The notes beneath the pieces are model-generated. The model was not told the origin of the DNA. It did no database searches and was given only the letters and a program-made list of their open reading frames with translations. A stretch of DNA of 64,000 nt from Caulobacteraceae bacterium (GTDB lineage: Bacteria; Pseudomonadota; Alphaproteobacteria; Caulobacterales; Caulobacteraceae): positions 5,584 through 69,583 of the forward strand of contig CANESI010000011.1 of NCBI GenBank assembly GCA_947441065.1, read 5' to 3'. The position numbers were made by a program, and so were the translations under genes. The first letter of the stretch is position 1, and each line of letters begins with the position of its first letter. Positions 1,078 to 30,196 of this stretch are shown piece by piece.

Positions 1078-4000
1078 CTAGTAGGATTGCAGGGCGCGGA
1101 CTTCCAGACCCTCCGGCGTGGCCAAGGCGATGGCCTGGGCGGCGGCGAGGGCACCGGCGGTGGTGGTATAGTAGGGGATCTTCATCATCAGGGCCGAGCG
1201 ACGGATCGAGAAGCTGTCCTGAATGGATTGCTTGCCCTCCGTGGTGTTGAACACCAACTGCACGTCGCCGTTCTTCATGGCGTCGACAATGTTGGGACGC
1301 CCTTCAAGCACCTTTTTCACCGCCGTGGCGGCAATGCCCTGCTCGCGCAGATAGTCGGCTGTGCCTGAGGTGGCGATGATCTTGAAACCCTTGCCGATCA
1401 AGAGCCGGATGGCGTCGAGCACGAAGGGCTTGTCGCCCTCCTTGACCGAGACGAAGGCGGTTCCAGCCTCGGGCAGGACCACGCCGCCGCCGAGCTGGCT
1501 CTTGGCAAAGGCTCTCGCAAAGGCCGGGGCGAAGGTCTCGCCCTCGCGGCGCCAATCAAGACCCATCACCTCGCCGGTCGAGCGCATTTCTGGGCCAAGC
1601 AGCGTATCGACGCCGGGGAAGCGGGCGAAGGGGAAGACCGCCTCCTTGACCGCGACATGCTCATAGACCTTCTCGGTCAGGCCAAAGCTGGCCAGGCTGA
1701 CGCCCGCCATGACCTTGGCGGCGATCCCGGCCAGCGGCTCGCCGATGGTCTTGGCCACGAAGGGCACGGTGCGCGAGGCGCGGGGGTTCACTTCCAACAC
1801 AAAGATTCGCGGGGCGTCGGACTGGGGCTCTTCAATCGCGAACTGCACATTCATCAGGCCGCGCACATTCAGGGCCTCGGCCATGGCCTCGGTCTGGCGC
1901 TTCAACTCGTCGATGATGGCGGGGCTGAGCGAATAGGGCGGTAAGGAGCAGGCACTATCGCCCGAATGGACTCCGGCCTCTTCAATATGTTCCATGACCC
2001 CGGCCACGAACACGGTCTCGCCATCAGCAATGGCGTCCACATCCACCTCGGTGGCGCGGGACAGGTACTGGTCGATCAGGACAGGACTATCACCCGACAC
2101 CTTTACCGCGTCGCGAACATAGCGGGTCAGTTGCTCATCATCGCGGATGATCTCCATGGCCCGACCCCCCAGCACATAGGAGGGGCGGATGACGATGGGA
2201 TAGCCGACCGCATGGGCCCCGGCAAAGGCCTCTTCGACCGAGCGGGCGATGGCGTTGATCGGCTGAGCAATGCCGATCTTATGCAACAGTTGCTGGAACC
2301 GCTCGCGGTCTTCGGCCAGGTCGATGGCGTCGGGCGAGGTGCCAAGGATGGGGATGCCCGCATCTTCGAGGGCTTGAGCCAGCTTCAGCGGCGTCTGGCC
2401 GCCGAACTGGACGATGACGCCGATCAGGGTGCCGTTGGAGCGTTCGACATCCAACAGTTCCAGCACGTCCTCTGCCGTCAGGGGCTCGAAATAGAGACGG
2501 TCGGAGGTGTCATAGTCGGTGGACACGGTCTCGGGATTGCAGTTGACCATGATCGACTCCACCCCGATCTGGTCGAGCGCGAAGGCGGCGTGACAGCAGC
2601 AATAGTCAAACTCGATCCCTTGGCCGATCCGGTTGGGGCCGCCGCCGAGGATCACGGCCTTGCGCCGGTTCGAAGGCTCTGACTCGCAGCTTGGCACCTG
2701 ACCCAGTGCCCCGCTTTCATAGGTCGAATACATGTAAGGGGTCTTGGCGAAGAACTCTGCCGCGCAGGTGTCGATGCGCTTATAGACCGGACGAACACCC
2801 AGCGCCTGACGGGCCGAACGCACGGCCTTTTCCGCGCCATCGGTCAGTTCGGCCAGGCGGGCATCCGAAAAGCCCATGGCCTTGATCTTGCGCATGGCAT
2901 CGGCGTCGGTTGGCAGTCCGTTTGAGCGGATCTCGGCTTCGGTCGCGACGATGGTCTCGATCTGGCGCAGGAACCAGGGCTCGTAGGAACAGGCCTCGTT
3001 GATCTCGTCGACGCTGAGGCCGTGGCGGAAGGCTTGGGCAATGACGCGCAGACGGTCGGGGGTCGGCTGGCCCAGCGCGCGAACGATGGCGGCCTTGCCG
3101 GTCTCCGGATCGCCAGCCCCTTCAATCTCGATCTCGTTAAAGCCGGTCAGGCCGGTTTCGAGGCCGCGCAGGGCCTTTTGGGCGCTTTCAGCAAAGGTCC
3201 GGCCAATGGCCATGACCTCGCCAACCGACTTCATGGAGGTGGTCAGATAGGGCTCGGCGCCGGGATATTTTTCGAAGGCAAAGCGGGGGATCTTGGTGAC
3301 CACATAGTCGATGGTCGGTTCGAACGAGGCCGGGGTCGCACCGGTAATGTCGTTCATCAACTCATCGAGCGTGTAGCCCACGGCCAGACGGGCCGCGACC
3401 TTGGCGATGGGAAAGCCCGTCGCCTTGGAGGCCAGCGCCGAGGAGCGCGACACGCGAGGGTTCATCTCGATGACCACCATGCGGCCATCCTTGGGATTGA
3501 CCGCGAACTGAACGTTCGAGCCGCCGGTCTCAACGCCGATCTCGCGCAGCACGGCAATCGAGGCCGCGCGCATCCACTGATATTCCTTGTCGGTCAGGGT
3601 CAGGGCCGGGGCGACCGTGATGGAGTCGCCCGTATGGACGCCCATCGGATCGATATTCTCAATCGAGCAGACAATGATGCAGTTGTCGGCCTTATCGCGG
3701 ACGACCTCCATCTCATATTCTTTCCAGCCTAAGACGCTCTCTTCGATGAGCACTTCGGTGGTCGGGGACATGTCGAGGCCGCGTTCCACGATCTCGCGGA
3801 ACTCTTCCATATTGTAGGCAATGCCGCCGCCGGTGCCCGCAAGGGTGAAGGACGGGCGGACGATGGCGGGCAGGCCGACGAAGGGCTGAGCCTCCAGCGC
3901 CTCTTCCATCGTGTGGGCGGCGCGGCTACGCGGGCTTTCGAGACCCAGCTTGTCCATCGCATTACGGAACTTCTGACGGTCTTCGGCCTTGTCGATGACC

Positions 4001-4362
4001 TCAGCATTGGCCCCGATCATCTCGACGCCATATTTGGCCAAGGTGCCGTCAGCTTCGAGCGCCAGAGCGCAGTTCAGCGCCGTCTGGCCGCCCATGGTGG
4101 GCAAAAGCGCGTCTGGGCGCTCCTTTTCGATGATCTTGGCGACGATCTGCGCGGTGATCGGCTCGATATAGGTGGCGTCGGCCACATCGGGATCGGTCAT
4201 GATCGTGGCCGGATTGGAATTGACCAGCACGATCCGATAGCCTTCAGCGCGCAGGGCCTTACAGGCCTGAACCCCTGAATAGTCGAACTCACAGGCCTGC
4301 CCAATGACGATAGGGCCAGCGCCGATAATCAGAATGGTCTTCAGGTCGGTACGTTTAGGCAT
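1078..4362 (-). CDS. carB: Carbamoyl-phosphate synthase large subunit
   Basis: The ORF runs 1078..4395. The start is trimmed to ATG 4360-4362, giving the canonical CarB N-terminus [30 protein letters not shown]. It has duplicated ATP-grasp halves and a C-terminal MGS-like domain. Confidence 0.95.
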
Positions 4363-4560
4363 CACATCATCCAAGCGCGTTCGGGGCCTGCGCACAGAGG
4401 TGCGGCCCGGAATCGATAAACATGTAGGTTAAGGGCTTCGTTTAGAGGCCCGCGAGGCAGGGGGCAAGGGCGCTAAGGCTGTTTGCGTAAAATTGATGAC
4501 AGGGTGGCAATTTGGGGATGTGTTTTAGAGTTAACATTATCCGATAGATTGGTTTTTATA

Positions 4561-4764: not shown

Positions 4765-5926
4765 ATACGGCGTCCATCAAATCGGCGAACCGTTGGAAGA
4801 TGTAGAGCGAATCTGTCGGTCCGGGGGAGGCTTCGGGGTGGTGTTGGACGCTGAAGACAGGCTTTCCTGTCAGGGCGATCCCGGCATTGGTGCCATCGAA
4901 CAGGGACACATGGGTCTCTTCGACGCCCGAGGGCAGGCTCTCGCGGTCGACCGTAAAGCCGTGGTTCATCGACACGATCTCGACCTTGCCGGTGGTCAGG
5001 TCCTTGACCGGGTGATTGGCCCCGTGGTGACCCTGATCCATTTTGGCGGTCTTGGCGCCGAGGGCGAGGGCCAGCATCTGATGGCCAAGGCAGATGCCGA
5101 AGACGGGCTTGCCGCTGGCGACCAAGGCTTGGATTTCCGGCACAGAATATTGGCCCGTTGCCGCCGGATCGCCGGGGCCGTTGGACAGCATGATGCCGTC
5201 AGGATTGCGCGCCAGAATGTCGGCGGCGCTGGTGTCAGCGGGCACGACCGTCACATGGGCGCCGATGCTGGTCAGGGCACGTAGAATGTTGCGCTTAATG
5301 CCATAGTCGATGACCACGACCTGATATTTGGGTTGTCCGGCCTTGGCATAGCCCTCCGGCCAGGTCCAAAGGCCTTCGTCGAAGGTGAAGGGCTGGCGGC
5401 AGCTTGCATCCTTGGCCAGATCCAGACCGACAATGCCGCTCCACGCCTTGGCCTTGGCGGCCAGAGCTTCTAGATCGAACTGACCCTCAGGGCTGTGGGC
5501 GATGACACCGTGCGGCATGCCCCTATCGCGAATGACGCGGGTCAAGGCACGGGTATCGACCCCGGCCAGACCGACCACGCCCCGCTTGGTCATCCATCCG
5601 GCCAGATCACCCTCGGCGCGCCAGTTGGCAGGCGGCGTTGGAACATCGCGGAAGATCGCCCCTCGGGCTGCGGTCACCGCGCCTTGGCCAAACTCTTCAA
5701 GGTCTTCGCCATTGACGCCGACATTGCCAATATGGGGGAAGGTGAAGGCCACGATCTGGGCCATATAGGACGGATCGGTGAGAATTTCCTGATAGCCGGT
5801 CATGGCCGTATTGAAACAGACCTCGCCCAGAGCCTCCCCGACCGCCCCGACCCCGATCCCTTGCAGGACGGTCCCGTCGGCTAGAACCAGAACGCCCGTT
5901 GCGCCAGACATCAGCTTTGCGGTCAT
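4763..5926 (-). CDS. carA: Carbamoyl-phosphate synthase small (glutamine amidotransferase) subunit
   Basis: The ORF runs 4763..5962. The start is chosen at ATG 5924-5926 ([19 protein letters not shown]...), which has GGAGG about 10 nt upstream. The GATase active-site context FGICLGHQ is present. Confidence 0.92.
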
Positions 5927-6128
5927 GTAACAAGCGCCTCCGGTTGCGACTGGGCACGGCAATGGGCGGCCAAACGGTCGTCCTGACGGGCACTATGTCA
6001 TGGAATCGGCAGGAAAGCGCCCCGCCGGACAAACGGAGGCGTTACTAGGGGCGAGGCGGCCTCGGGTCAAGCCATGACGGGATCATTCGACTCTTCTATA
6101 AGGGCGGCAACAGGCAAAAGGCTTCTCC

Positions 6129-6869
6129 ATGACCATCACCACAGTCGGCATCGATGCTGATGATACGCTCTGGCACAATGAGACGGTGTTTCGGCTGACC
6201 CAGGCGCGGTTTGCGGACCTGCTCAAGCCATGGGCCGATCAGGACCATCTGCTGGAGCGTCTGGCGGCGATGGAGCGAAAAAACCTTCAGTTCTATGGCT
6301 ATGGGATCAAGGGCTTTACCCTATCGATGCTCGAGACGGCGCTGGAACTGACCGGCGGGGATATTCCAGCGGCGGTGACGCGGGAGGTCTTGGCGGCTGG
6401 CCGAGAAATGCTGTCCCATCCGGTCGAGCCCTTGCCCGGCGTCGAGGCGGCCTTGACCGCCTTGGCCGCCCGCTGGCGTCTGGTGCTGATCACCAAGGGC
6501 GATCTGTTCGATCAGGAAAATAAGCTGGCGAGATCAGGTCTAGGAGACCTGTTCCATGCGGTTGAGGTGGTGTCTGAAAAGACCCCCGCCTGCTACAGCA
6601 CTATCTTCACGCGTCACGGCACGGGGGCCGAGCAGGCCGTGATGATCGGCAATTCGGTCAAGTCCGACATCTTGCCCTCGATCGAGGCGGGCGCTTGGGC
6701 CGCCTATATTCCCTATGTGATGACCTGGGCGCACGAGATGGCCGATCCGCCGGAAAACCATCCACGCTATGTGCAACTGGCTTCAATCTCAGAAGCGCCC
6801 GATTGGGTGGCGATGGTTGAACGTCTGATGGCCGAGGGGGGGTGCAGCCCCGGTCAAGCGGCGCTATAG
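6129..6869 (+). CDS. HAD-superfamily hydrolase
   Basis: 246-aa ORF with an N-terminal DxDxT-type motif (GIDADDTLW) and a later GD...D motif region. The specific substrate is unknown. Confidence 0.7.
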   Translation: MTITTVGIDADDTLWHNETVFRLTQARFADLLKPWADQDHLLERLAAMERKNLQFYGYGIKGFTLSMLETALELTGGDIPAAVTREVLAAGREMLSHPVEPLPGVEAALTALAARWRLVLITKGDLFDQENKLARSGLGDLFHAVEVVSEKTPACYSTIFTRHGTGAEQAVMIGNSVKSDILPSIEAGAWAAYIPYVMTWAHEMADPPENHPRYVQLASISEAPDWVAMVERLMAEGGCSPGQAAL

Positions 6870-17887: not shown

Positions 17888-18766
17888 GTGATCCACAGGT
17901 CAGTCTACCGCGTCGCGCTCAGCGTCTTGATGGTGACGGCCATGGGGGTAGCGGCCTGCTCGCCAGAACAGAAGGCCCTGCTGCCCGGCGCCGCCAAGAC
18001 GCCCGCGATCAATGCCGAGGCCCTGAGCCGCATCATCGATGCCAGTTTCGGCGGGCTTGGGACCTGTCTGACCCTCACCGACCGCGCGACAGGCCGCGAG
18101 GTCTATGTCTATGGCTCCAATACCACCTGTATGAGGCCCCTGCCGCCCTGTTCGACCTTTAAGATCGCCAATAGCCTGATTGGGCTGGATGAGGGCGTCA
18201 TCAAGCCGGACGAGGTGATCAGGTGGGACGGCAAGCCTCAGGCGCTGAAGTCTTGGGAAATCGACGCCAATCTGGAGACGGCCTTCAAGCGCTCGATGGT
18301 GCCCTGGTTCCAGAAGGTGGCGCGCCAGATCGGTCCGGACACCTATACCAAGCGGCTCAAGGAAATGGACTATGGATCAGGCGATCCGGTAGGCCCGGTC
18401 GATCAGTTCTGGCTTGGCCCAGAGGTCGGCGGCGGCTTGACCATCTCCACCCGCCAGCAGACCGATTTCCTTAATCGCCTCTATGCAGACCGCCTGTCGA
18501 CCAATCCCCTGACCACGGCCACCGTCGCCAAGATCCTGATCGACGAGACGCGGGGCTCATCGGTGATGAGCGGCAAGACCGGCACCTGCTCCAGCCAAGC
18601 CGATGGCTCGCGCAATGTCGGCTGGTGGGTTGGACGGCTCAACAGCCCCGAGCGCGATCTGGTCTTTGCCGTCTCGATGGAGGGCCAGAACGCCTTGCCC
18701 GGCCGCGAACTGCAGATCCGCCTGAAATCCGCCTTCGCTAAGGCCGGGCTCTGGCCGCAGACATAG
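17888..18766 (+). CDS. Class D (OXA-type) beta-lactamase, probable lipoprotein
   Basis: All the class D motifs are present: STFK (CSTFKIANS), S-x-V (SMV), YGS (MDYGSGD), KTG (SGKTGT) and W-x-x-G (WWVG). It has a signal peptide with the lipobox-like sequence VAAC, and a GTG start. Confidence 0.8.
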   Translation: MIHRSVYRVALSVLMVTAMGVAACSPEQKALLPGAAKTPAINAEALSRIIDASFGGLGTCLTLTDRATGREVYVYGSNTTCMRPLPPCSTFKIANSLIGLDEGVIKPDEVIRWDGKPQALKSWEIDANLETAFKRSMVPWFQKVARQIGPDTYTKRLKEMDYGSGDPVGPVDQFWLGPEVGGGLTISTRQQTDFLNRLYADRLSTNPLTTATVAKILIDETRGSSVMSGKTGTCSSQADGSRNVGWWVGRLNSPERDLVFAVSMEGQNALPGRELQIRLKSAFAKAGLWPQT

Positions 18767-18769
18767 GCG

Positions 18770-19507
18770 CTAGGGGACCAGCGCATAGTCCCCAGTCACA
18801 TCGATCCTTATGCTGAGTTCACCCCCGGACACCGGGGTTGAGCCGCCATCAGCGCTCATCTTGGCCATGGCCATCAGGGCTATGGGGCGCGGCTCAGGAC
18901 TGCCGCCGCCTTCGGACAGGTTGACCAATCGCACAGAGCGGTGGCCGGTCGCGCTGGCATAGAGATCGGCCTTCGCCTTTAGCGCCTTGACAGCGGCGAG
19001 CCGCGCGGCGTCCTCCAGCCCTTGGGCGTTCTTGAGGCCAAAGCTGATGCCATTGACCTGATTGACCCCGGCCTCGACCACGGCATCCAGCACTGGCCCA
19101 AGGCGCGGCAGGTCATTGACCATGATCGTCACCGCGTTCGAGGCCTGATAGCCGGTCAGCTTGGGGGGTTCGTTTTGGTTGTAGCTATATTGCGCATTCA
19201 AATCGATGGACGAGGTTTGGATGTCTCTCGCCGCCAGACCCTGTTTCATCAACATGGCCATGACCTTGGCCATCCGCTCTCGGTTCTGAGCCATGGCCTG
19301 CGCCGCCGTCGGGGCGAGGGTCTGGACCCCGACACTGATCGCCGCCCGATCCGGCGCGGCCTTGACCTCGCCATATGCGCTGAGATGGAGCTTGGGACTG
19401 GGCAGGGTCTGGGCGCTGGCAGCGCCGACAGTCAGCCCGACCAGCAGCAGGCCAAGGCTGGCCACCCGCAGTGGACGCGCGAAAGGACGAGGATGGGCAG
19501 GGGTCAT
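18770..19507 (-). CDS. SIMPL (DUF541) domain periplasmic protein
   Basis: 245 aa with a signal peptide and a SIMPL-like pattern (LSAYGEVKAAPDRAAISVGVQT...NQVNGISFGL). Confidence 0.75.
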   Translation of the reverse strand: MTPAHPRPFARPLRVASLGLLLVGLTVGAASAQTLPSPKLHLSAYGEVKAAPDRAAISVGVQTLAPTAAQAMAQNRERMAKVMAMLMKQGLAARDIQTSSIDLNAQYSYNQNEPPKLTGYQASNAVTIMVNDLPRLGPVLDAVVEAGVNQVNGISFGLKNAQGLEDAARLAAVKALKAKADLYASATGHRSVRLVNLSEGGGSPEPRPIALMAMAKMSADGGSTPVSGGELSIRIDVTGDYALVP

Positions 19508-19645: not shown

Positions 19646-19721
19646 GGGCCTGTAGCTCAATGGTTAGAGCCGACCGCTCATAACGGTCTGGTTGGGGGTT
19701 CGAGTCCCTCCAGGCCTACCA
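19646..19721 (+). tRNA. tRNA-Met (anticodon CAT; elongator Met or lysidine-modified Ile2 not distinguishable here)
   Basis: A hand-folded 76-nt cloverleaf. The acceptor stem is GGGCCTG/CAGGCCT (G1-U72). The D arm is GCTCaatggttaGAGC. The anticodon stem is GACCG/CGGTC with loop CTCATAA. The T arm is GGGGGttcgagtCCCTC. The 3' end is an encoded CCA. Confidence 0.9.
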
Positions 19722-19812: not shown

Positions 19813-20070
19813 CTAGACGAGAGCTGATGGCGGACCAAAGCCATAAGTCCTGTCGGCGTGCGCCGGGACGGCCACATCGCTGAGATTATGCCTCGCATCG
19901 GCTAGCATGGCGAGCGAGTTGGCCAGCACCCTATAGGTCGCCTCAATCGCCACAAACCCAATGTTCAGAACCACCCCCACCCCAAAGGCGAGATCGAAAT
20001 TGGCCGGGACATGGCTGTGGTCGGCGTGTGTGTGTGGCCGATCATCGGACTTGGACATGTGCAGGCTCAC
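19813..20070 (-). pseudogene. Truncated N-terminal fragment of a CzcD-type cation diffusion facilitator gene
   Basis: The 85-aa ORF carries a His-rich N-terminus and CDF TM1-TM2 motifs (FGVGVVLNIGFVAIEATYRVLANSLAMLADARHNLSDV). After that, similarity to CDF proteins is lost and the ORF stops. A full CDF protein is about 300 aa. Confidence 0.7.
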
Positions 20071-20154
20071 ATCGGCGCACCAACCGGGCGGTGGGAGTAG
20101 CGTTTAGCAAGGACCGAGTGTGAGGGTGTTTTTGTTAGGGCCCGGTTTCAAATA

Positions 20155-20610
20155 TTAATTTTTAATTATTGATTGAATCATCCGTGAATATTTTTCTTCA
20201 GTCACCATAATAGAGCCTAGTTTCAATATTTCACTATCTCCTCTAATCAGCCTAATTTTGATGCGACCAGTTTTATTTAATATTAATGATGAAAATTGAA
20301 CGGGTATTTCAATTTGAATTCTAGCATCCTCTCGATCAATGTTGTTTTTAATGGGAACATCTATTTTATCAAATGGAACTTCAACCTCCCAATGAGGTTT
20401 CTCTTCATCATCTGGGAAAAATACCATAAACTTCAATGGTTTCTTCTCGATACTTCGCGATTGGACATATTTAATTATCATGCAAAAATTCTTCATGACG
20501 AATGGTATGCTGGGAACTATTATTTCATCTTGATAAATTCCCATATAACTAATTTTGTTATTTATTTCGTGACGTATATCATCACAGAATATTGTGTACC
20601 CGAAAATCAT
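20155..20610 (-). CDS. Hypothetical protein, 151 aa (islet gene C, no family recognised)
   Basis: Very AT-rich ORF (MIFGYTIFCDDIRHEINNKISYMGIY...). A strong RBS GAGGGAG lies 8 nt upstream of the ATG and overlaps the stop codon of the upstream gene (gtTTGAGAGGGAGATTTTAAATG). The opposite-strand ORFs here are shadows. Confidence 0.7.
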   Translation of the reverse strand: MIFGYTIFCDDIRHEINNKISYMGIYQDEIIVPSIPFVMKNFCMIIKYVQSRSIEKKPLKFMVFFPDDEEKPHWEVEVPFDKIDVPIKNNIDREDARIQIEIPVQFSSLILNKTGRIKIRLIRGDSEILKLGSIMVTEEKYSRMIQSIIKN

Positions 20611-20624
20611 TTAAAATCTCCCTC

Positions 20625-21131
20625 TCAAACGTTTTCATTGACAACAGATATAATTGAATATTTGGTCGATGAGTATTCAACATTTTTTCCAATCGATTCA
20701 CTTATCAAAAAACTGTTCACATTAATAACATATGAAGCATGGATTTCACTTTTTAATGCGGCACTTACGTGAATTTGTGTTTGACGTAATTCATTTTCTA
20801 AATTATCGCGTGCAATTTTTCCTGCCGGTTGCGGGTTAAAATGCAACCAGTAACCTAGCGCACCCAATATTCGGCCGGCATTTTCAATAGTCAAATTTCT
20901 AGGTTGTGACAGCATCCGGCTAACAACAGATTTGTTGACGCCCAGTGCATCAGCGATTTCTTGTTGCTTTAAACGCGAACGCGACAAAATATAATTGACT
21001 GTTGAATACAGTTCTCTTCTTGCTAACCCGCCTGCAAGTTCAATCGCTTCTTTTGATGCGATGTTGACATTGGTCAATATATCATTTGATTTGTGATCAG
21101 GTCTTGCCATTGTCGTCTTGTCGCTGGTCAT
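20625..21131 (-). CDS. XRE-family helix-turn-helix protein with an extra C-terminal tail of about 65 aa (islet gene B; candidate antitoxin/regulator)
   Basis: The HTH is LKQQEIADALGVNKSVVSRMLSQPRNLTIENAGRILGALG (aa 54-93). AAGGAG lies 8 nt upstream of ATG 21131. The start overlaps the end of gene A by 35 nt. Confidence 0.75.
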   Translation of the reverse strand: MTSDKTTMARPDHKSNDILTNVNIASKEAIELAGGLARRELYSTVNYILSRSRLKQQEIADALGVNKSVVSRMLSQPRNLTIENAGRILGALGYWLHFNPQPAGKIARDNLENELRQTQIHVSAALKSEIHASYVINVNSFLISESIGKNVEYSSTKYSIISVVNENV

Positions 21132-21777
21132 AATACCCGCTCCTTATCCCGCCCAATTCATTTGCTATTGGCGCTTCGTTCCACTCTAAGGGGGTGCAAA
21201 CTTTTTTTACCCAATTTAGAGATATGTTGGCTTGATTGTTTTGGGTCATCCTTCCTGTTCCCTGGAACTCGTATTTTGCAAAGCATTGATGAGCTAAGAA
21301 ATTCCTCGAGTCTAAGAAGGCACCGAATATGCGCGTTTTGGGTCGTTTCGGCACCGGTCTAAGTTCCCACGCGCTCCAAGGACTACCCCTTTGAGGGGTA
21401 ATGACTTTAATATCGCACTTGTCATTTTCTGAGCCGATCGACATGAGTGACCCAGTAATGAAGCTAGTTAGAAACGCTTGCGTGTCATCCCACCTAGCCT
21501 CCGCTTGATTTGCTGTCTCGTGCCCATTTTTTGCGGACCAACGTGTGTTAATCTTGGTCATCAAACTACTCGGCATCCAAATTTCGCGCAGCGTTTCAGT
21601 GGCGGTGGAGCCTACTGGTCGCCACCTCTCAAGAGGTCTAGTTGTGAAGGGCTCGATCAAAGTTGCCATTAAAGGCAACTGAATTGCAAATGATTTTTGC
21701 GTGGCGAGTTCATCTTTTTCACCATCGGCACTATTAAAATCGGTATTTTCCGTGGTCTGCAAATCCAAGCTCGTCAA
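21097..21777 (-). CDS. Hypothetical protein with a HigB/Gp49 (RelE superfamily)-like core motif in its C-terminal half (islet gene A)
   Basis: aa 137-171, WELRPVPKRPKTRIFGAFLDSRNFLAHQCFAKYEF, matches the remembered Gp49/HigB pattern ELR-x8-R(V/I)F(Y/G)-x13-F-x-K with identical spacing. The start is uncertain: TTG at 21777 has no SD, and the first in-frame ATG is codon 37. Confidence 0.5.
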   Translation of the reverse strand: MTSLDLQTTENTDFNSADGEKDELATQKSFAIQLPLMATLIEPFTTRPLERWRPVGSTATETLREIWMPSSLMTKINTRWSAKNGHETANQAEARWDDTQAFLTSFITGSLMSIGSENDKCDIKVITPQRGSPWSAWELRPVPKRPKTRIFGAFLDSRNFLAHQCFAKYEFQGTGRMTQNNQANISLNWVKKVCTPLEWNEAPIANELGGIRSGYYDQRQDDNGKT

Positions 21778-21890
21778 TTTTAATGCGTGTGGGGGTGTTA
21801 TTCGAGAGACGAAATGCGCACCCTTTGATTGTCATTAGCTCGATAAATTATCCGCATTTCAAGTTGTAAAAAAGGTTTTGTTGACATCTA

Positions 21891-21920
21891 ATTTTACGTT
21901 TTTTGTTTCCCCACTTTCAA
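21891..21920 (-). promoter_or_regulatory. Candidate sigma-70-type promoter for the islet operon
   Basis: The minus strand reads TTGAAA (21915-21920), an 18-nt spacer, then TAAAAT (21891-21896), about 110 nt upstream of gene A. This is pattern match only. Confidence 0.25.
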
Positions 21921-21973
21921 CTAGGCCCCCTCCGGCTCTGCGGGTAGTCTTGTGACGCGCCTGTCTGGGGGAA

Positions 21974-23467
21974 ATGTTTGTGAAGATGCCTGTGCCCGAT
22001 GGGGCGGTTCTGTCTCGGCGGGGCGAGATTGTGGCGGCCTTGCGGGGGATTGTGCCGGGCGAGGGGGTGATCTCTGATCCGGCCTCTTTGCGGGCCTATG
22101 AGTCCGATGGGTTGACGGCCTATCGCCAGGTGCCTCTGGTCGTGGTTCTGCCCGAAACGACGGCGCAGGTGTCGGCGATCTTGCGCTGGTGTAACGCGGC
22201 GGGGGTCAAGGTGGTGCCGCGCGGGTCGGGGACCTCGCTGTCGGGCGGGGCCTTGCCGCTCGAGGATGGGGTTCTGCTGGGCCTGTCCAAGTTCAATCAG
22301 GTTCTGGATATTGATTATGACAGCCGCGTGGCGGTGGTTCAGCCGGGGGTGACCAATCTGGCCATCACCCGCGCGGTCGAGGATCGCGGCTTCTACTATG
22401 CGCCTGATCCGTCCAGCCAGATTGCCTGTTCGATCGGCGGCAATGTGGCCGAGAATTCCGGCGGGGTCCATTGCCTCAAATATGGCCTGACGACCAATAA
22501 TGTGCTCGGTGTCGAGATGGTGATGATGGACGGGGAGGTGGTGCGTCTGGGTGGCCAACATCTGGACCCGGCGGGCCTTGATCTTCTGGGTATTGTCGTC
22601 GGCTCTGAGGGGCTGCTGGGCGTGGTCACCGAAGTGACGGTGCGCATCCTGCCCAAGCCGCAGACGGCGCGCGCCCTCCTGCTAGGCTTTGAGACCGTTG
22701 AGCGCGCCGGTCAGTGCGTGGCCGATGTGATCGCGGCGGGGATCATTCCGGCGGGGATGGAGATGATGGACCGCCCCGCCATCCATGCGGCAGAGGCCTT
22801 TGTCCATGCGGGCTATCCGCTCGATGTTGAGGCCCTGCTGATCGTCGAACTCGATGGGCCCTATGCGGAATGTGACTATCTGGTCGAGCAGGTGGCCAAG
22901 ATCGCTACGGCAAACGGGGCAGTGACGTCGCGGGTCTCGACCAGCGAGGACGAGCGCCTAGCCTTCTGGGCGGGGCGCAAGGCGGCGTTCCCGGCGGTGG
23001 GGCGCATCTCGCCCGACTATTACTGCATGGACGGCACCATCCCTCGGCGGCGCTTGCCAGAGGTGCTGCGCCGGATGGCGGCCCTGTCGGACCATTATGG
23101 GCTCAAGGTCGCCAATGTGTTCCATGCAGGCGACGGCAATCTGCACCCCCTGATCCTCTATGATGCCAATCAGCCCGGCGAGCTGGAGCGGGCCGAGGAT
23201 TTTGGCGCCGATATCCTGCGGCTCTGTGTCGAGGTTGGCGGCGTGCTGACCGGCGAGCACGGGGTTGGGGTGGAAAAGCGCGACCTGATGGGGACCATGT
23301 TCACCGAGATCGATCTGGCCCATCAACAGAGGGTCAAGTGCGCCTTTGATCCGCAGCTCTTGCTCAATCCGGGCAAGGTCTTCCCGACCCTGCATCGCTG
23401 TGCCGAGATGGGCCGGATGCACATCCATCACGGGGCCGTGCCCTTCCCAGACCTGCCAAGGTTCTAG
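21974..23467 (+). CDS. glcD: Glycolate oxidase subunit GlcD (FAD-linked oxidase)
   Basis: 497 aa with an FAD-binding PCMH-type domain (VVPRGSGTSLSGGALP). It is followed by glcE and glcF in the canonical order. The start could instead be the ATG at 21986. Confidence 0.9.
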   Translation: MFVKMPVPDGAVLSRRGEIVAALRGIVPGEGVISDPASLRAYESDGLTAYRQVPLVVVLPETTAQVSAILRWCNAAGVKVVPRGSGTSLSGGALPLEDGVLLGLSKFNQVLDIDYDSRVAVVQPGVTNLAITRAVEDRGFYYAPDPSSQIACSIGGNVAENSGGVHCLKYGLTTNNVLGVEMVMMDGEVVRLGGQHLDPAGLDLLGIVVGSEGLLGVVTEVTVRILPKPQTARALLLGFETVERAGQCVADVIAAGIIPAGMEMMDRPAIHAAEAFVHAGYPLDVEALLIVELDGPYAECDYLVEQVAKIATANGAVTSRVSTSEDERLAFWAGRKAAFPAVGRISPDYYCMDGTIPRRRLPEVLRRMAALSDHYGLKVANVFHAGDGNLHPLILYDANQPGELERAEDFGADILRLCVEVGGVLTGEHGVGVEKRDLMGTMFTEIDLAHQQRVKCAFDPQLLLNPGKVFPTLHRCAEMGRMHIHHGAVPFPDLPRF

Positions 23468-26207: not shown

Positions 26208-27500
26208 CTACCGCACCAATTCCCCGCCCTTCATCACATGCGCCACCCGTTCGAGCACCGTAATGTTCTTGAGCGGGTCGCCCATAACCGCAATCAGATC
26301 GCCATAGTGGCCGGGCGTAACCGACCCCACATCGCCAGAGCGCTGCATCAGGTCGGCGGCGACGGTGGTGGCGGATTGGATGGCCTGCATCGGGCTCATG
26401 CCATAGCGGACCATATAGGCGAACTGTTTGGCATTATCGCCGTGGGGATAGACCCCGGCGTCGGTGCCATAGGCGATCTTGACCCCCGCCTTCACGGCCT
26501 TGGTAAAGCCTTCGCGCTGCAGGTCGGTGGTATCGCGGTTCTTGCGCAAGATCTCTTCTGGCCATTTATCACGGGCACCGATCTGGTTGATATAGTCGCC
26601 ATTATAGATGTCCATGACCAACCATGCCCCCTTGGCCTTGGCCAGAGCGATGCCTTCATCGTCAATCAGGCTGGCATGTTCAATCGAGCGCACACCGGCG
26701 CGCAGGGCGATCTTGATCCCTTCCGCACCATGGGCGTGAGCGGTGGCATAGCTGTTGTTGCGGCGGGCCTCATCAACGGCGGCGCGGACCTCATCTTCGG
26801 TCAGTTCGGGGGCGCCCGGCTCGGTGCCTGCAGCCAGAACAGCTCCGGTTGCGATCAGTTTGAGGAAATCGACTCGGTGCTGGAACAGATAGCGGGCCTT
26901 GACCGCCATCTCCGCCGGACCGCTGACCACCCCGACGCGCATGTTGGAAGGGACCGTCACGTCAGGGGCCAAGCCGGTAACCTCACCGCCGCCGCCAGGC
27001 ACGGTCAGATAGGCACCCGCCACCATCATGCGCGGCCCCTCGATCCAACCTGCCTCAATGGCATCTCGCACAGCGACGTCGCCAAAGGCGCGGAAGGTGC
27101 CAACGTCACGAACGCTAGTGAACCCCGCGTGGAGCGTCTGTTTGGCATGTTTGGCCCCGAGCAAGGCAATCTCGGCAGCACTGTGCAGCAAAGGCTCCGC
27201 GACATTGTTCGACTGTTCGGTGTCGACCATATGGGTGTGCATGTCGATCAGGCCCGGCAGGACCGTATAGGCCGACCAGTCGGTTATGACCGATCCCTTG
27301 GGCGGCGGGGCATAGGGGCCGACCGCTGCAATTCGGCCGTCCTTTATAAGAAGCAATTGGTCGCTGCTTACGGTTGCCGACATTGGGTCGACCAGCTTCC
27401 CCGCGCGAACATAGGTCGTTTGAGCAGAAGCGCTTGCCGCTACCAGTATCGAGCTAAAAGATAGAAATACAAGAGAGACACGAAAAGGTAGTTTGATCAT
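26208..27500 (-). CDS. Secreted metal-dependent amidohydrolase family protein
   Basis: The ORF runs 26208..27548. The likely start is M17 (ATG ending at 27500), giving the signal peptide MIKLPFRVSLVFLSFSSILVAASASA. The HxH metal motif (IDMHTHM) and amidohydrolase-fold motifs are present. Confidence 0.8.
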   Translation of the reverse strand: MIKLPFRVSLVFLSFSSILVAASASAQTTYVRAGKLVDPMSATVSSDQLLLIKDGRIAAVGPYAPPPKGSVITDWSAYTVLPGLIDMHTHMVDTEQSNNVAEPLLHSAAEIALLGAKHAKQTLHAGFTSVRDVGTFRAFGDVAVRDAIEAGWIEGPRMMVAGAYLTVPGGGGEVTGLAPDVTVPSNMRVGVVSGPAEMAVKARYLFQHRVDFLKLIATGAVLAAGTEPGAPELTEDEVRAAVDEARRNNSYATAHAHGAEGIKIALRAGVRSIEHASLIDDEGIALAKAKGAWLVMDIYNGDYINQIGARDKWPEEILRKNRDTTDLQREGFTKAVKAGVKIAYGTDAGVYPHGDNAKQFAYMVRYGMSPMQAIQSATTVAADLMQRSGDVGSVTPGHYGDLIAVMGDPLKNITVLERVAHVMKGGELVR

Positions 27501-27742
27501 GATAGTCTCCGACAAACGATCAATGAGGAATTGCGTAGGCTGTGACAATTGGTCAAATGGCTTCTTTCGTACTGTCTGTAATCATCACTTCAACAGTAAT
27601 TCTATTGACTTTAGCAGTGCCAATTATTCGCATTTGACGCGCGGCTCTATTTTTGTTTGTTAGCACTCATTAAGTTTCTGTTAGGCTCAAGGTGAGAGAT
27701 TTCACCTGTCTGATGTCGCCTCTAGGAGAGGGGAAGAACTTC

Positions 27743-28153
27743 ATGTCTACGTCAAGATCATCGAGCTATCGTCGGTCTGGAAATGACCATTTCGAGCCAG
27801 ATATTGACTCCGATCCCGCTTCCCAGCGGCGACTGCGCGGTCAACTGGAACAGATCGACTATACGGTTTTTGCCGCTAACCGTGAGGTTATCTCGCGCTC
27901 GCTCGGATTCGCAGATGCGGAGAAGTTCCAACGGCTCGCCGCCGCAACGGCCTTGGCCCGCGCCGCTTGGGTATCCGAAGCCTTGAACCAAACCCGAGTA
28001 CCCGCGCCGCTCAATGCTGAGCAGGTGAAGAAATTGAAGAATCTACGCGAAGCCTATGAGGAACTGTCTGAGTCCTATGAGGCCATGCGCCGAATGGTCG
28101 AGCGCGGATATCTGCCCTTCAAGCCTGCGGCGAACGGGTTCTTTAAGGCCTAG
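27743..28153 (+). CDS. Hypothetical protein, about 136 aa, predicted helical (no family recognised)
   Basis: The ORF runs 27692..28153. The likely start is ATG 27743 (MSTSRSS...), preceded by GGAGAGGGGAAG. GC is lower than in core genes. Confidence 0.55.
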   Translation: MSTSRSSSYRRSGNDHFEPDIDSDPASQRRLRGQLEQIDYTVFAANREVISRSLGFADAEKFQRLAAATALARAAWVSEALNQTRVPAPLNAEQVKKLKNLREAYEELSESYEAMRRMVERGYLPFKPAANGFFKA

Positions 28154-28160
28154 GCTCGTC

Positions 28161-29291
28161 CTAGCTATTTAGGACGATATTGCTTTCGACAGGGACGTCG
28201 GGGAAGTTTAGGCTCTGCTCGAAATCCATGAACACGTCGGTCAGCTCATCTGGACTGATGATCGGTGGGCGGCCATTGGGGAACTTGTAGCGCCAGAAAC
28301 TAATCACGTGATCCACCGCGCCGAGCCGTTCACCAAGCTGTGAAAACAGTTCAGGTGCCGTGATCAAAAAATCTCTGAAATCAGCGGGTTTTCCCTCCTT
28401 TGTCATGCGACTGTAGGAATGGTCATAGACCGCTATGGTACTCTTCACGCTTTGCGAAGCAGCGATGATTTTCTTGCGCAAATTGACTCGGGCATTGGAG
28501 ATGTAGACCCGGGTCTCATCATCCGTATTGCCACGCGGTTGGATCTTTTCGATCTGGCTCAAGATGTCTGGCAGCTTGGGCAGCATGTCTCCCAATTGCC
28601 ATTTGTAATAGATGAAGGCCTTCCAGCAGAAAATGCCTTCTTGGAACTGCATCCGGTCCATCTGCATGGTCAGGCGTAAAGGGTCTAGGTCACTGTCTGC
28701 AGAGTTGGCGAGAAGTTTACGGGCCAAGGTTCCGGCATAGGCAACATTGCCATCCTCACCCACCGACATCCGTACCAGGGCTTCAATTTCCTTCTGCGCG
28801 AAGGCGAACATCCGCGCCGTATCCGCATCCGAAATCTCGAAATAGCAGCGGGCGGGTTTGATGCCCTGTCTCGCCAACTGTTCGCGAATGAGGAAGGGAT
28901 CGAGGGATGGGGATTCGTCCAACAGCTGCAACACGGCCAGATCTGCTCTCAGATCTTGGATACGGGTGTTCAGCGTGTTGCAGAGAATTTCTTTGAAATT
29001 GTTCTGACCGATAAAAGCATATTGCCCACCCATGCGCAGGTCGCTGACCTCGATGGGCAGAATGATTTTGGTCGCCGAATTGCGCGCATAGGGAAAGGCG
29101 TCCATCTCGTTCGCCCGCAGCCTATGTTTCGTGATGATGGCGCGGTTTAGGGCGGCGTTCTGAAAGAGTGGAAACCGCGTATATTCTTCTGTCTGGCCCG
29201 ATCGAATTTGGACAGCGCGCAGATTGAGAACGCGCGCAGATGAGGCGCTGCTCTCAAGTTGAGCCAAATTGCGGACGGTACGGTCGTTCAT
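28161..29291 (-). CDS. Hypothetical protein, 376 aa (no family recognised)
   Basis: A long uninterrupted ORF with non-repetitive, protein-like composition (…FCWKAFIYYKWQLGDMLPKL…). GC is reduced, roughly half by eye. It is convergent with 27743..28153. Confidence 0.65.
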   Translation of the reverse strand: MNDRTVRNLAQLESSASSARVLNLRAVQIRSGQTEEYTRFPLFQNAALNRAIITKHRLRANEMDAFPYARNSATKIILPIEVSDLRMGGQYAFIGQNNFKEILCNTLNTRIQDLRADLAVLQLLDESPSLDPFLIREQLARQGIKPARCYFEISDADTARMFAFAQKEIEALVRMSVGEDGNVAYAGTLARKLLANSADSDLDPLRLTMQMDRMQFQEGIFCWKAFIYYKWQLGDMLPKLPDILSQIEKIQPRGNTDDETRVYISNARVNLRKKIIAASQSVKSTIAVYDHSYSRMTKEGKPADFRDFLITAPELFSQLGERLGAVDHVISFWRYKFPNGRPPIISPDELTDVFMDFEQSLNFPDVPVESNIVLNS

Positions 29292-29620
29292 TTATCCACT
29301 CGGTGGTGCTTGTCGATCAACGCTAACGGGGAGGAGAATCGTGTCTACACCCTAGGACGCTTATGGCAAAAACGATATTTATAATTCGCTAAAGAAATCA
29401 ATCTGAGAGAAAGGTTTTGCTCCTTCCCCTCCGTTAAAATCAGTCGGCTAGGGTCGCCGTGGGGATTAAGTCCTATCACTGTTCCCAATGAGGCAGGTCT
29501 GCGCGTCTCTTGTGCCTTGAACCCAGAGAATGCCCAGTCTATGCCCACCTCAACTCGGGCCATGCGGTCCTTGAAGAGACGCTCTTGCCGGATTACCGCA
29601 AGAGTTTGGGAGCTTGTCCT

Positions 29621-30196
29621 ATGGACCATTCCTTTTGGATCTCGACCTTTGTGGTCGCCTTGGCCGAGATCGGGGACAAGACCCAACTGTTAGCAATCCT
29701 CTTGGCCGCTCGGTTTAAGCGTCCTATCCCCATCATCTTAGGCATTCTGGTCGCTACCCTCGCTAATCACGGACTCGCGGCCACCTTGGGCTATTTCGTC
29801 TCAGGCATCTTGGCGGCCCAATGGTTTGGCTACGTCGTCGGTGCGTCGTTCTTGGTCATGGGCGCTTGGATCTTGGTGCCGGACAAGGCCGAAGAGTTGG
29901 ATGCAAAGCCTCCGAAATTTGGTATCTTCGCCACCACGGCCATCGCCTTCTTCCTCGTGGAAAATGGCGACAAGACCCAGATTGCGACGGTTGCCTTGGC
30001 AGCCAAATATCACGACATATTCTGGGTCGCTGCGGGCACGACAGCAGGCATGATGTTGGCCAATGTTCCAGCGGTTCTGTTGGGCGAGGCGGCCACCAAG
30101 GTTGCCCCTATGGCGGTTGTGCGCATGGCAGCGGCGGGCCTTTTCGCCGCGATTGGGGTCTGGACCCTGCTCCAAACCTCAGGACTGTTGGGATAG
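29621..30196 (+). CDS. UPF0016 (GDT1/TMEM165) family membrane protein, putative Mn2+/Ca2+ transporter
   Basis: The start is trimmed to ATG 29621 (GGGAG 8 nt upstream). The two signature E-x-G-D-K-T motifs are present (AEIGDKTQ and VENGDKTQ), and the protein is multi-TM hydrophobic. Confidence 0.85.
   Translation: MDHSFWISTFVVALAEIGDKTQLLAILLAARFKRPIPIILGILVATLANHGLAATLGYFVSGILAAQWFGYVVGASFLVMGAWILVPDKAEELDAKPPKFGIFATTAIAFFLVENGDKTQIATVALAAKYHDIFWVAAGTTAGMMLANVPAVLLGEAATKVAPMAVVRMAAAGLFAAIGVWTLLQTSGLLG

Follow-up and report, generated by a model that had tools for sequence, protein, structure and literature searches.

A candidate three-gene toxin-antitoxin-type module with a DUF6941 third component in a Caulobacteraceae genome and in temperate phages

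Three coupled genes in an AT-rich cassette

The window analysed here is a 64,000-nucleotide (nt) stretch of DNA from a Caulobacteraceae bacterium (GenBank assembly GCA_947441065.1, contig CANESI010000011.1, positions 5,584 to 69,583), in which three minus-strand genes, named A, B and C below, lie together in an AT-rich cassette. Homologues of the three stand side by side in other bacterial genomes and in temperate phages, and the trio is conserved and mobile, with an interchangeable toxin position. We propose that it is probably an undescribed tripartite module of the toxin-antitoxin (TA) type, in which A would be the toxin, B the antitoxin and C, a member of the family DUF6941, the third component. 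The genes and their signals are as follows, with positions counted from the start of the window.

21097-21777, minus strand: gene A, open reading frame (ORF) of 226 amino acids (aa) from a TTG start
20625-21131, minus strand: gene B, ORF of 168 aa with an XRE-type helix-turn-helix (HTH)
20155-20610, minus strand: gene C, ORF of 151 aa, DUF6941
20110-21930, no strand: AT-rich foreign cassette, holding the three genes and the promoter region only, delimited by the drop in GC content
21140-21145, minus strand: ribosome-binding site of gene B, AAGGAG, within the 3' end of gene A, read from the sequence
20618-20624, minus strand: ribosome-binding site of gene C, GAGGGAG, abutting the gene B TGA (20625-20627), read from the sequence
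21891-21920, minus strand: candidate sigma-70-like promoter upstream of gene A (TTGAAA, 18-nt spacer, TAAAAT), by consensus match

Genes A and B overlap by 35 nt; the ATG of gene B lies at 21131, with AAGGAG 8 nt before it, and the distance from GAGGGAG to the ATG of gene C (20610) is 7 nt. Together with the ORFs themselves, these signals confirm the three minus-strand genes and the coupling that a preliminary description of this DNA had reported. The start of gene A is uncertain, being either the TTG at 21777 or an ATG at 21669 (M37). Between ~20110 and ~21930 the GC fraction ranges from 0.29 to 0.55, against ~0.62 in the flanks, which bears out the foreign composition noted earlier; ~150 nt 5' of the three genes share this low GC and form the upstream margin of the cassette. 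The putative promoter agrees with the consensus at 10 of 12 positions and is the best minus-strand site of the region; it is a candidate by this match, which does not imply function. A motif, GTCAACAAA (minus-strand reading), is present at 21867-21885 in the promoter region upstream of gene A and again at 20921-20939 inside gene B, within the near-palindrome GTCAACAAATCTGTTGTTA; B may use it as an operator, or the match may be due to chance.

Gene C, which had been taken for an orphan of unknown family, proved to belong to DUF6941 (Pfam PF22091; 39.9 bits against a cut-off of 27, E=6.6e-10), its residues 6-129 aligning with positions 3-118 of the 125 in the profile, and it also matches phrog_31406 (PHROG 31406) with E=3e-11. 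At least 1,507 relatives were found by profile search; the rare protein of the trio is instead that of gene A. Across 120 diverse members of DUF6941, residues F8, C9, D11, R13, E15, P36, P66 and G115 are invariant and all present in gene C, D10 and K19 are nearly invariant, and the N-terminus of gene C carries the motif G-Y-T-I-F-C-D-D-I-R-x-E-x-x-x-K. The family is acidic (median isoelectric point 5.2), and gene C is acidic and cytosolic. An AlphaFold2 model built on the 120-sequence alignment predicts, with high confidence (predicted local distance difference test, pLDDT, 94.2; predicted template-modelling score 0.85), ten strands in a beta-sandwich of immunoglobulin (Ig)-like type, followed by one C-terminal helix. 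When this model was searched with Foldseek, no PDB entry matched at E<=1e-3; the top-ranking entries are generic sandwiches of Ig-like or lipid-binding type, with template-modelling (TM) scores of ~0.37 (from 0.36) for PDE6delta/UNC119 and of 0.42/0.47 for the Ig-like domain of Pycsar AGS-C, and a viral structure library gave good matches to five uncharacterised phage proteins only (TM 0.48-0.62). A SecB-like identity of C was rejected on its fold, with no SecB in Pfam, in the PDB profile search or among the best 50 Foldseek matches listed, in agreement with the preliminary description, which had likewise seen no convincing likeness of gene C to SecB.

Gene B is an XRE-type HTH protein with an extra C-terminal tail, as had been read from the sequence beforehand. 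Residues 54-93 match Pfam HTH_3 (E=2.7e-6; 27.7 bits against a cut-off of 23), the HigA equivalog TIGR02607 is matched below its model cut-off (E=4e-4), and in PADLOC the protein gives only weak, generic HTH matches (E>=1e-4). The HTH core comprises residues ~27-100, and a fast-evolving tail of 68 aa follows it. We infer that B is probably both antitoxin and autorepressor.

Gene A is a probable, as yet unproven, toxin of a rare family. A word-indexed search of 5.8 billion proteins found its close relatives in one near-identical cluster, an exhaustive HMMER search of 1.84 billion representative proteins found 17 distant relatives, and a plasmid search with gene A gave no match. With jackhmmer started from A alone, only near-identical copies were recovered from the fetched loci described below, and a hidden Markov model (HMM) of the A family was needed to go further. 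The family alignment has a conserved N-terminal region and the core 'WELR..P..TRIFG.F....F(V/L)A....K', which in gene A reads 'WELR...TRIFGAF...F.A....K' at residues ~120-170, after an N-terminal extension of ~100 aa. Within this core, in a strand motif common to HigB, R149 is invariant and R140 and W137 nearly so; catalytic residues are not assignable.

The preliminary description had credited A with a RelE-superfamily core of the HigB/Gp49 type, and this is partly supported, by weak results that agree at the level of family profiles, and not by the single protein. In hhalign comparisons, the profile of A and its sequence class (cl0, introduced below) aligned with that of the Gp49-type class cl2 over the expected strand core with P=0.002 and 0.012. 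For A6, the 50-sequence alignment of the A family (A3 being another alignment of the family), the best match among 177,635 PDB sequences is the HigB toxin 6af3 over the same core (E=0.21), and Pfam Gp49 is touched by 3 of the 50 family members (best E=0.0058). Sequence and profile searches of the PDB gave nothing significant for A, the A family or C. From these alignments, and from the Gp49 and RelE/HigB-like proteins that take the place of A in homologous trios, we consider it quite likely that A has a HigB/Gp49-like core, and gene A at this locus probably represents a new, long-form family of HigB-like toxins.

A metagenomic relative (L001), 94% identical, carries the same cassette at the same site. 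Between the window and this relative, the ratio of nonsynonymous to synonymous substitution rates (dN/dS) takes values of 0.38 (A), 0.32 (B) and 0.16 (C), as fits purifying selection on real genes in all three cases, strongest for gene C. In gene B, 24 of the 27 changes lie in the tail and the N-terminus, 16 of them among the 68 residues of the tail, and the 74 residues of the HTH core have 3; in gene A the fast-evolving part is the C-terminal third. The HTH core of B, the first 157 residues of A, and C are much more conserved. Gene A of the relative ends seven codons earlier (219 aa).

Recurrence of the trio and exchange of its toxin

When one genome per species was scanned, genes for DUF6941 relatives turned up in 305 stretches, 80 of which were fetched and analysed. 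These loci come mostly from Alphaproteobacteria, with some from Beta- and Gammaproteobacteria and a few from other phyla. In 66 of the ~80 the gene directly upstream of C is a B-like HTH gene, and in 63 a toxin-like ORF of 130-180 aa stands just upstream of B. The full trio was also present in 69 of 80 DUF6941 loci on IMG/VR viral contigs, 48 of them with a first protein of class cl1 and 21 of class cl0. The nearest distant relative of A (P0122, 42% identity) is itself followed by a B-like gene and then by a DUF6941 gene. The toxin-first, HigBA-like order with a third gene, which had been described for the window alone, is thus a recurrent one in genomes and prophages, and the question of whether homologues of A, B and C co-occur elsewhere is answered by 63 of the ~80 genome loci and 69 of the 80 viral ones. 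The coupling recurs as well: of 138 loci, 82 have a 4-nt overlap between the stop of B and the start of C, and a further 12 have a 1-nt overlap.

The first-position proteins of the genome loci fall into three sequence classes, cl0 (35 loci, including A), cl1 (19 loci) and cl2 (7 loci). The A-family HMM matches cl0 proteins directly, down to E=1e-14. Class cl1 is that of gp52 of Pseudomonas phage MD8, which was annotated as 'HigB-like' independently, by HMM comparison, and the PDB matches of its profile are RelE and HigB-2 toxins only (E=0.078-0.73). For the cl2 profile the best PDB match is HigB1 of Mycobacterium tuberculosis (E=0.0033). With the classes pooled, 5 of 63 first-position proteins match Pfam Gp49, the best with E=7.5e-7. 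Of 50,697 phage records searched, exactly the same 7 are matched by the cl1 toxin and by C. A fourth context was found in the four loci given below, where a DUF4160 protein of ~80 aa (Pfam E=3.9e-7 and 2.1e-13 for the two proteins tested) and a protein of ~200 aa, with a C-terminal HTH and no Pfam match, precede DUF6941.

L013, 3148-4426: DUF4160, HTH and DUF6941 genes
L019, 3128-4450: DUF4160, HTH and DUF6941 genes
L041, 3038-4516: DUF4160, HTH and DUF6941 genes
L067, 2615-3711: DUF4160, HTH and DUF6941 genes

The same third component, DUF6941, is therefore combined with differing toxin-antitoxin families, namely cl0, cl1, cl2 and the toxin-like DUF4160 proteins.

In phage MD8 the order is cI, HigB-like gp52, HigA-like gp51 and 'Ig-domain' gp50; other copies stand beside an S24 repressor and an antirepressor (L094), between DNA methylase genes (L140) or beside P2-like ogr/gpD/gpU (L172). 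The typical location of the module is thus in accessory/immunity regions of temperate phages. In phage lambda, it is rexAB that occupies the position directly after cI.

Two further observations concern individual loci. In Pseudomonas phage MR15 (NC_074660.1; L171), the deposited annotation at 2600-3500 breaks up the DNA ahead of the DUF6941 gene into ORFs of 36-72 aa, yet tblastn gives there an intact 142-aa match to the HigB-like toxin of MD8, with 60% identity; this phage thus probably has the trio in mis-annotated form. In L061, L064, L066, L069 and L087, from Bradyrhizobium-type genomes (C at ~3990-4435), DUF6941 has no HTH or toxin gene upstream, and in such stand-alone loci it adjoins a long, secreted-looking protein with N/Q/T-rich repeats.

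A proposed mechanism and its alternatives

On balance, and with a confidence somewhat above even, we propose that the cassette is a mobile three-gene module of the type II TA type, which would work as follows. Gene A would encode the toxin, with a divergent HigB/Gp49-like core of the RelE superfamily, and would most likely be a translation-dependent mRNA endonuclease. Gene B would be the XRE-HTH antitoxin and autorepressor, and its variable extension, C-terminal at this locus, would neutralise the toxin. Gene C, with its translation coupled to that of B in most loci, would be produced at a fixed ratio to B; its product would bind a conserved part, be it the HTH core of B or the complex of B with A, and would control, as stabiliser, as sensor or in both roles, whether the antitoxin stays functional. 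C would then be a functional parallel of the third component of toxin-antitoxin-chaperone (TAC) systems, structurally unrelated to it, and in temperate phages the module would probably serve abortive infection, exclusion or addiction.

Several observations weigh against this proposal. Gene A alone has no match in Pfam, NCBIfam, PHROGs, PADLOC or PDB sequences, and no model of PADLOC-DB 2.0.0 matches A or C. The AlphaFold2 model of A with its only close homologue is unusable (pLDDT 36), and the links of A to HigB/Gp49 are each weak and not significant singly, all of them pointing in the same direction. In the window, genes B and C are separated by a gap of 14 nt and do not overlap. DUF6941 stands alone in several Bradyrhizobium-type loci, where it persists without the TA pair, and its C-D-D-x-R-x-E motif could reflect an enzymatic or ligand-binding role rather than a protein partner. 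Finally, we infer the toxicity of A, its neutralisation by B and the binding by C indirectly, from the sequences.

A stricter analogy with TAC systems would make C a dedicated chaperone that recognises the hydrophobic, beta-prone tail of B, helps B to stay folded and shields it from proteases, so that loss or titration of C frees the toxin. The order of toxin, antitoxin and third gene is that of TAC, one third component serves several toxin families as in the modular published TAC systems (bioRxiv 10.1101/2024.02.24.581848), the cl2 toxins are closest to HigB1 of M. tuberculosis, a TAC toxin, and at this locus B has a 68-aa tail and is translationally coupled to C. We nevertheless regard this reading as unlikely: C is an Ig-like beta-sandwich with no SecB match in Pfam or PDB profiles, its invariant charged motif is unusual for a chaperone of variable hydrophobic segments, and the extension of B is not constant. 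In a comparison of 125 trios, with gene C of the same family in all three classes, the C-terminal tail of B has a median of 53 aa in cl0 trios (n=50) and of 72 aa in cl2 trios (n=7), the toxin stop lying a median of 6 and 11 residues, respectively, from the HTH core; in cl1 trios (n=68), by contrast, the tail has a median of 15 aa (range 5-18 aa) and a median of 51 residues separates the toxin stop from the HTH core, so that the extension is N-terminal there while C is unchanged. The sequence of the tail, too, is not conserved across loci. Since the position of the extension follows the toxin class while C is constant, a toxin-neutralising segment fits better than a chaperone-addiction handle, and the simplest reading is that the extension neutralises its toxin and co-evolves with it; a handle for C like the chaperone-addiction (ChAD) regions is probably not what the B tail is, and the preliminary description, which had compared it with such a region, is unlikely to be right on this point. 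If the extension is tied to the toxin, the partner of C should be a constant thing, possibly the HTH core of B or the assembled complex, possibly a host or phage factor that is conserved. It is similarly improbable that A and B form an ordinary two-gene pair of the higBA type and that C is an unrelated, co-transcribed passenger, for example a prophage accessory protein. That C occurs alone in some genomes, that its fold has no functional link to TA biology and that the paper on Pseudomonas phage MD8 treats only the first two genes (gp52/gp51) as a TA pair would all suit a passenger; a passenger would not, however, be expected to overlap the HTH antitoxin-like gene by 4 or 1 nt in 94 of 138 loci, to keep its association through exchanges of the toxin and across Alpha-, Beta- and Gammaproteobacteria and a few other phyla, to share all 7 of its phage records among the 50,697 with the cl1 toxin, or to be the most strongly constrained of the three genes.

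The remaining alternatives assign the activity of the module differently. C could be the real effector or an enzyme, with the Cys-Asp-Asp/Arg/Glu cluster as active or ligand site and A-B as the controlling switch; F8, C9, D11, R13 and E15, invariant in 120 members, and D10 and K19, nearly so, would agree with this, as would the rank of C as the most conserved component and its weak fold likeness to ligand-binding sandwiches (PDE6delta/UNC119) and to the Pycsar AGS-C Ig-like domain. We judge it very unlikely, given that C also stands alone without a neutralising partner, which is unexpected for a toxic effector and argues against C being the toxin, that it has no His or other classical catalytic set and no structural match in the PDB at E<=1e-3, and that the proteins in first position belong to recognised toxin families. 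We give equally little credence to an operon in which A is no toxin at all and an HTH regulator is accompanied by two accessory proteins, without any growth inhibitor. The absence of a significant toxin-family match for A alone, its unassignable catalytic residues and its long N-terminal region of unknown function speak for such an operon; bona fide Gp49 and RelE/HigB-like proteins at the A position of homologous trios, the profile-level links of the A core to those proteins, and the invariant R149 and nearly invariant R140 and W137 in the strand motif shared with HigB speak against it.

A wider reading can be put forward tentatively, at a confidence that falls short of even: DUF6941, as an Ig-like beta-sandwich produced at a fixed ratio to an HTH antitoxin, may be the common control or sensor subunit of a new and widespread class of tripartite TA/defence modules with at least four toxin families, the long HigB-like (A), the RelE/HigB-like, the Gp49/HigB1 and the DUF4160 proteins. 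Such modules would lie in the immunity regions of temperate phages, and the subunit would replace, with another structure, the SecB-like chaperone of TAC systems and would possibly sense a trigger of abortive infection. If the proposed explanation is true, it places more than 1,500 proteins of a family without a described role in their first functional context, defines a new family of long-form HigB-like toxins and explains why, in some temperate phages, the trio recurs directly behind cI. Since Pseudomonas phage MD8 and its relatives are in culture, the trio is genetically testable.

Surroundings of the cassette and relation to known systems

The cassette lies between glcD on one side and a tRNA-Met gene with a cation-efflux remnant on the other, the latter two being placed as follows.

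19646-19721: tRNA-Met gene, 434 nt from the gene C stop
19813-20070, minus strand: fragment of a cation-efflux (CDF) gene, 85 aa, N-terminal; Pfam Cation_efflux E=8e-6, just under the cut-off

No phage genes surround it in the window, where it stands as a bare 1.8-kb cassette. The cation-efflux fragment has native GC, separates tRNA-Met from the cassette and is also found in the metagenomic relative; it looks like a truncated gene left by insertion or by deletion. With this native-GC fragment in between, the cassette lies near tRNA-Met and is not inserted at it, so that the tRNA-adjacent location given in the preliminary description was loosely put. A search around the cassette for flanking direct repeats gave only short, probably chance matches, and no integrase or recombinase was found among the cassette ORFs; a tRNA-targeted island was rejected on the direct repeats and cassette integrase that are missing and on the native-GC gene fragment.

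The composition of the cassette is uneven, with ~30% GC in gene C and the tail of gene B and ~47% GC in gene A (~45-55%). Gene A and the B-C part may, on composition, be of different origin, which would fit the swapping of toxins across loci. In the metagenomic relative, the glcD calls at 5167-6824 (corresponding to window 21974-23467) are broken, leaving a 116-aa C-terminal fragment of a FAD-oxidase and, on the other strand, an ORF of 376 aa; the colinearity of the DNA with the window points to a frameshift or a misassembly of the metagenomic contig. Just upstream of the tRNA, at 17888-18766 (plus strand), lies a gene resembling class D (OXA-type) beta-lactamases, with a Pfam transpeptidase domain match and cluster members called 'beta-lactamase class D' by JGI/IMG; it adjoins a SIMPL/YggE-family gene at 18770-19507 (minus strand). 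A second stretch of lower GC (0.53-0.54) extends over 27000-30000 and holds two ORFs with no Pfam match, at 27692-28153 (plus strand, 153 aa) and 28161-29291 (minus strand, 376 aa), adjoining which is a gene for a GDT1-family transporter at 29510-30196.

No mention of DUF6941/PF22091 was found in the literature, the searchable part of which is incomplete, so that an earlier description is possible; nor was a description of the trio found in work on three-gene RelE/HTH systems or on Ig-like third components. The suggestion of the preliminary description that the system may be new is in keeping with this, no paper having been found that treats the three genes as one system. A survey of RelE/ParE toxins (PMC11980606) describes a three-gene locus, ptuXYZ, which differs from the present one. 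The link of DUF6941 to TA pairs rests on genomic context.

Among the closest known systems are the HigBA pairs of a PF05973 toxin with an XRE-HTH HigA antitoxin, exemplified by Streptococcus pneumoniae HigBA (PDB 6af3), M. tuberculosis HigB1 and MD8 gp52/gp51. As in those systems, the toxin gene leads the operon and overlaps the gene of its XRE HTH partner, the setting is one of mobile elements and prophages, and the strand motif of A, WELR...R(I/V)FG.F...F(V/I)A...K, is common to HigB/Gp49. The module differs from them in the length of A, which with its N-terminal extension of ~100 aa is about twice the usual size and alone fails every curated toxin model, in the long extension of the antitoxin, and in the conserved third gene, DUF6941, which is usually translationally coupled.

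With the TAC systems, such as M. tuberculosis HigB1-HigA1-Rv1957 and E. coli HigBAC and CmdTAC, the trio shares the gene order, a third component that is found across toxin families, an antitoxin extension and, in its cl2 toxins, nearness to HigB1; published TAC systems act in phage defence, and the present trio sits in accessory regions of prophages. The third protein, however, is an Ig-like DUF6941 protein and not SecB, and the antitoxin extension is N- or C-terminal according to toxin class, unlike the fixed C-terminal ChAD. Lacking the SecB-like chaperone that defines TAC, the module is not a member of that group. Recent work has shown that the SecB-like chaperones of TAC systems serve as phage sensors. 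Should C be a functional partner of the TA pair, DUF6941 would provide a second, structurally unrelated route to three-component TA control.

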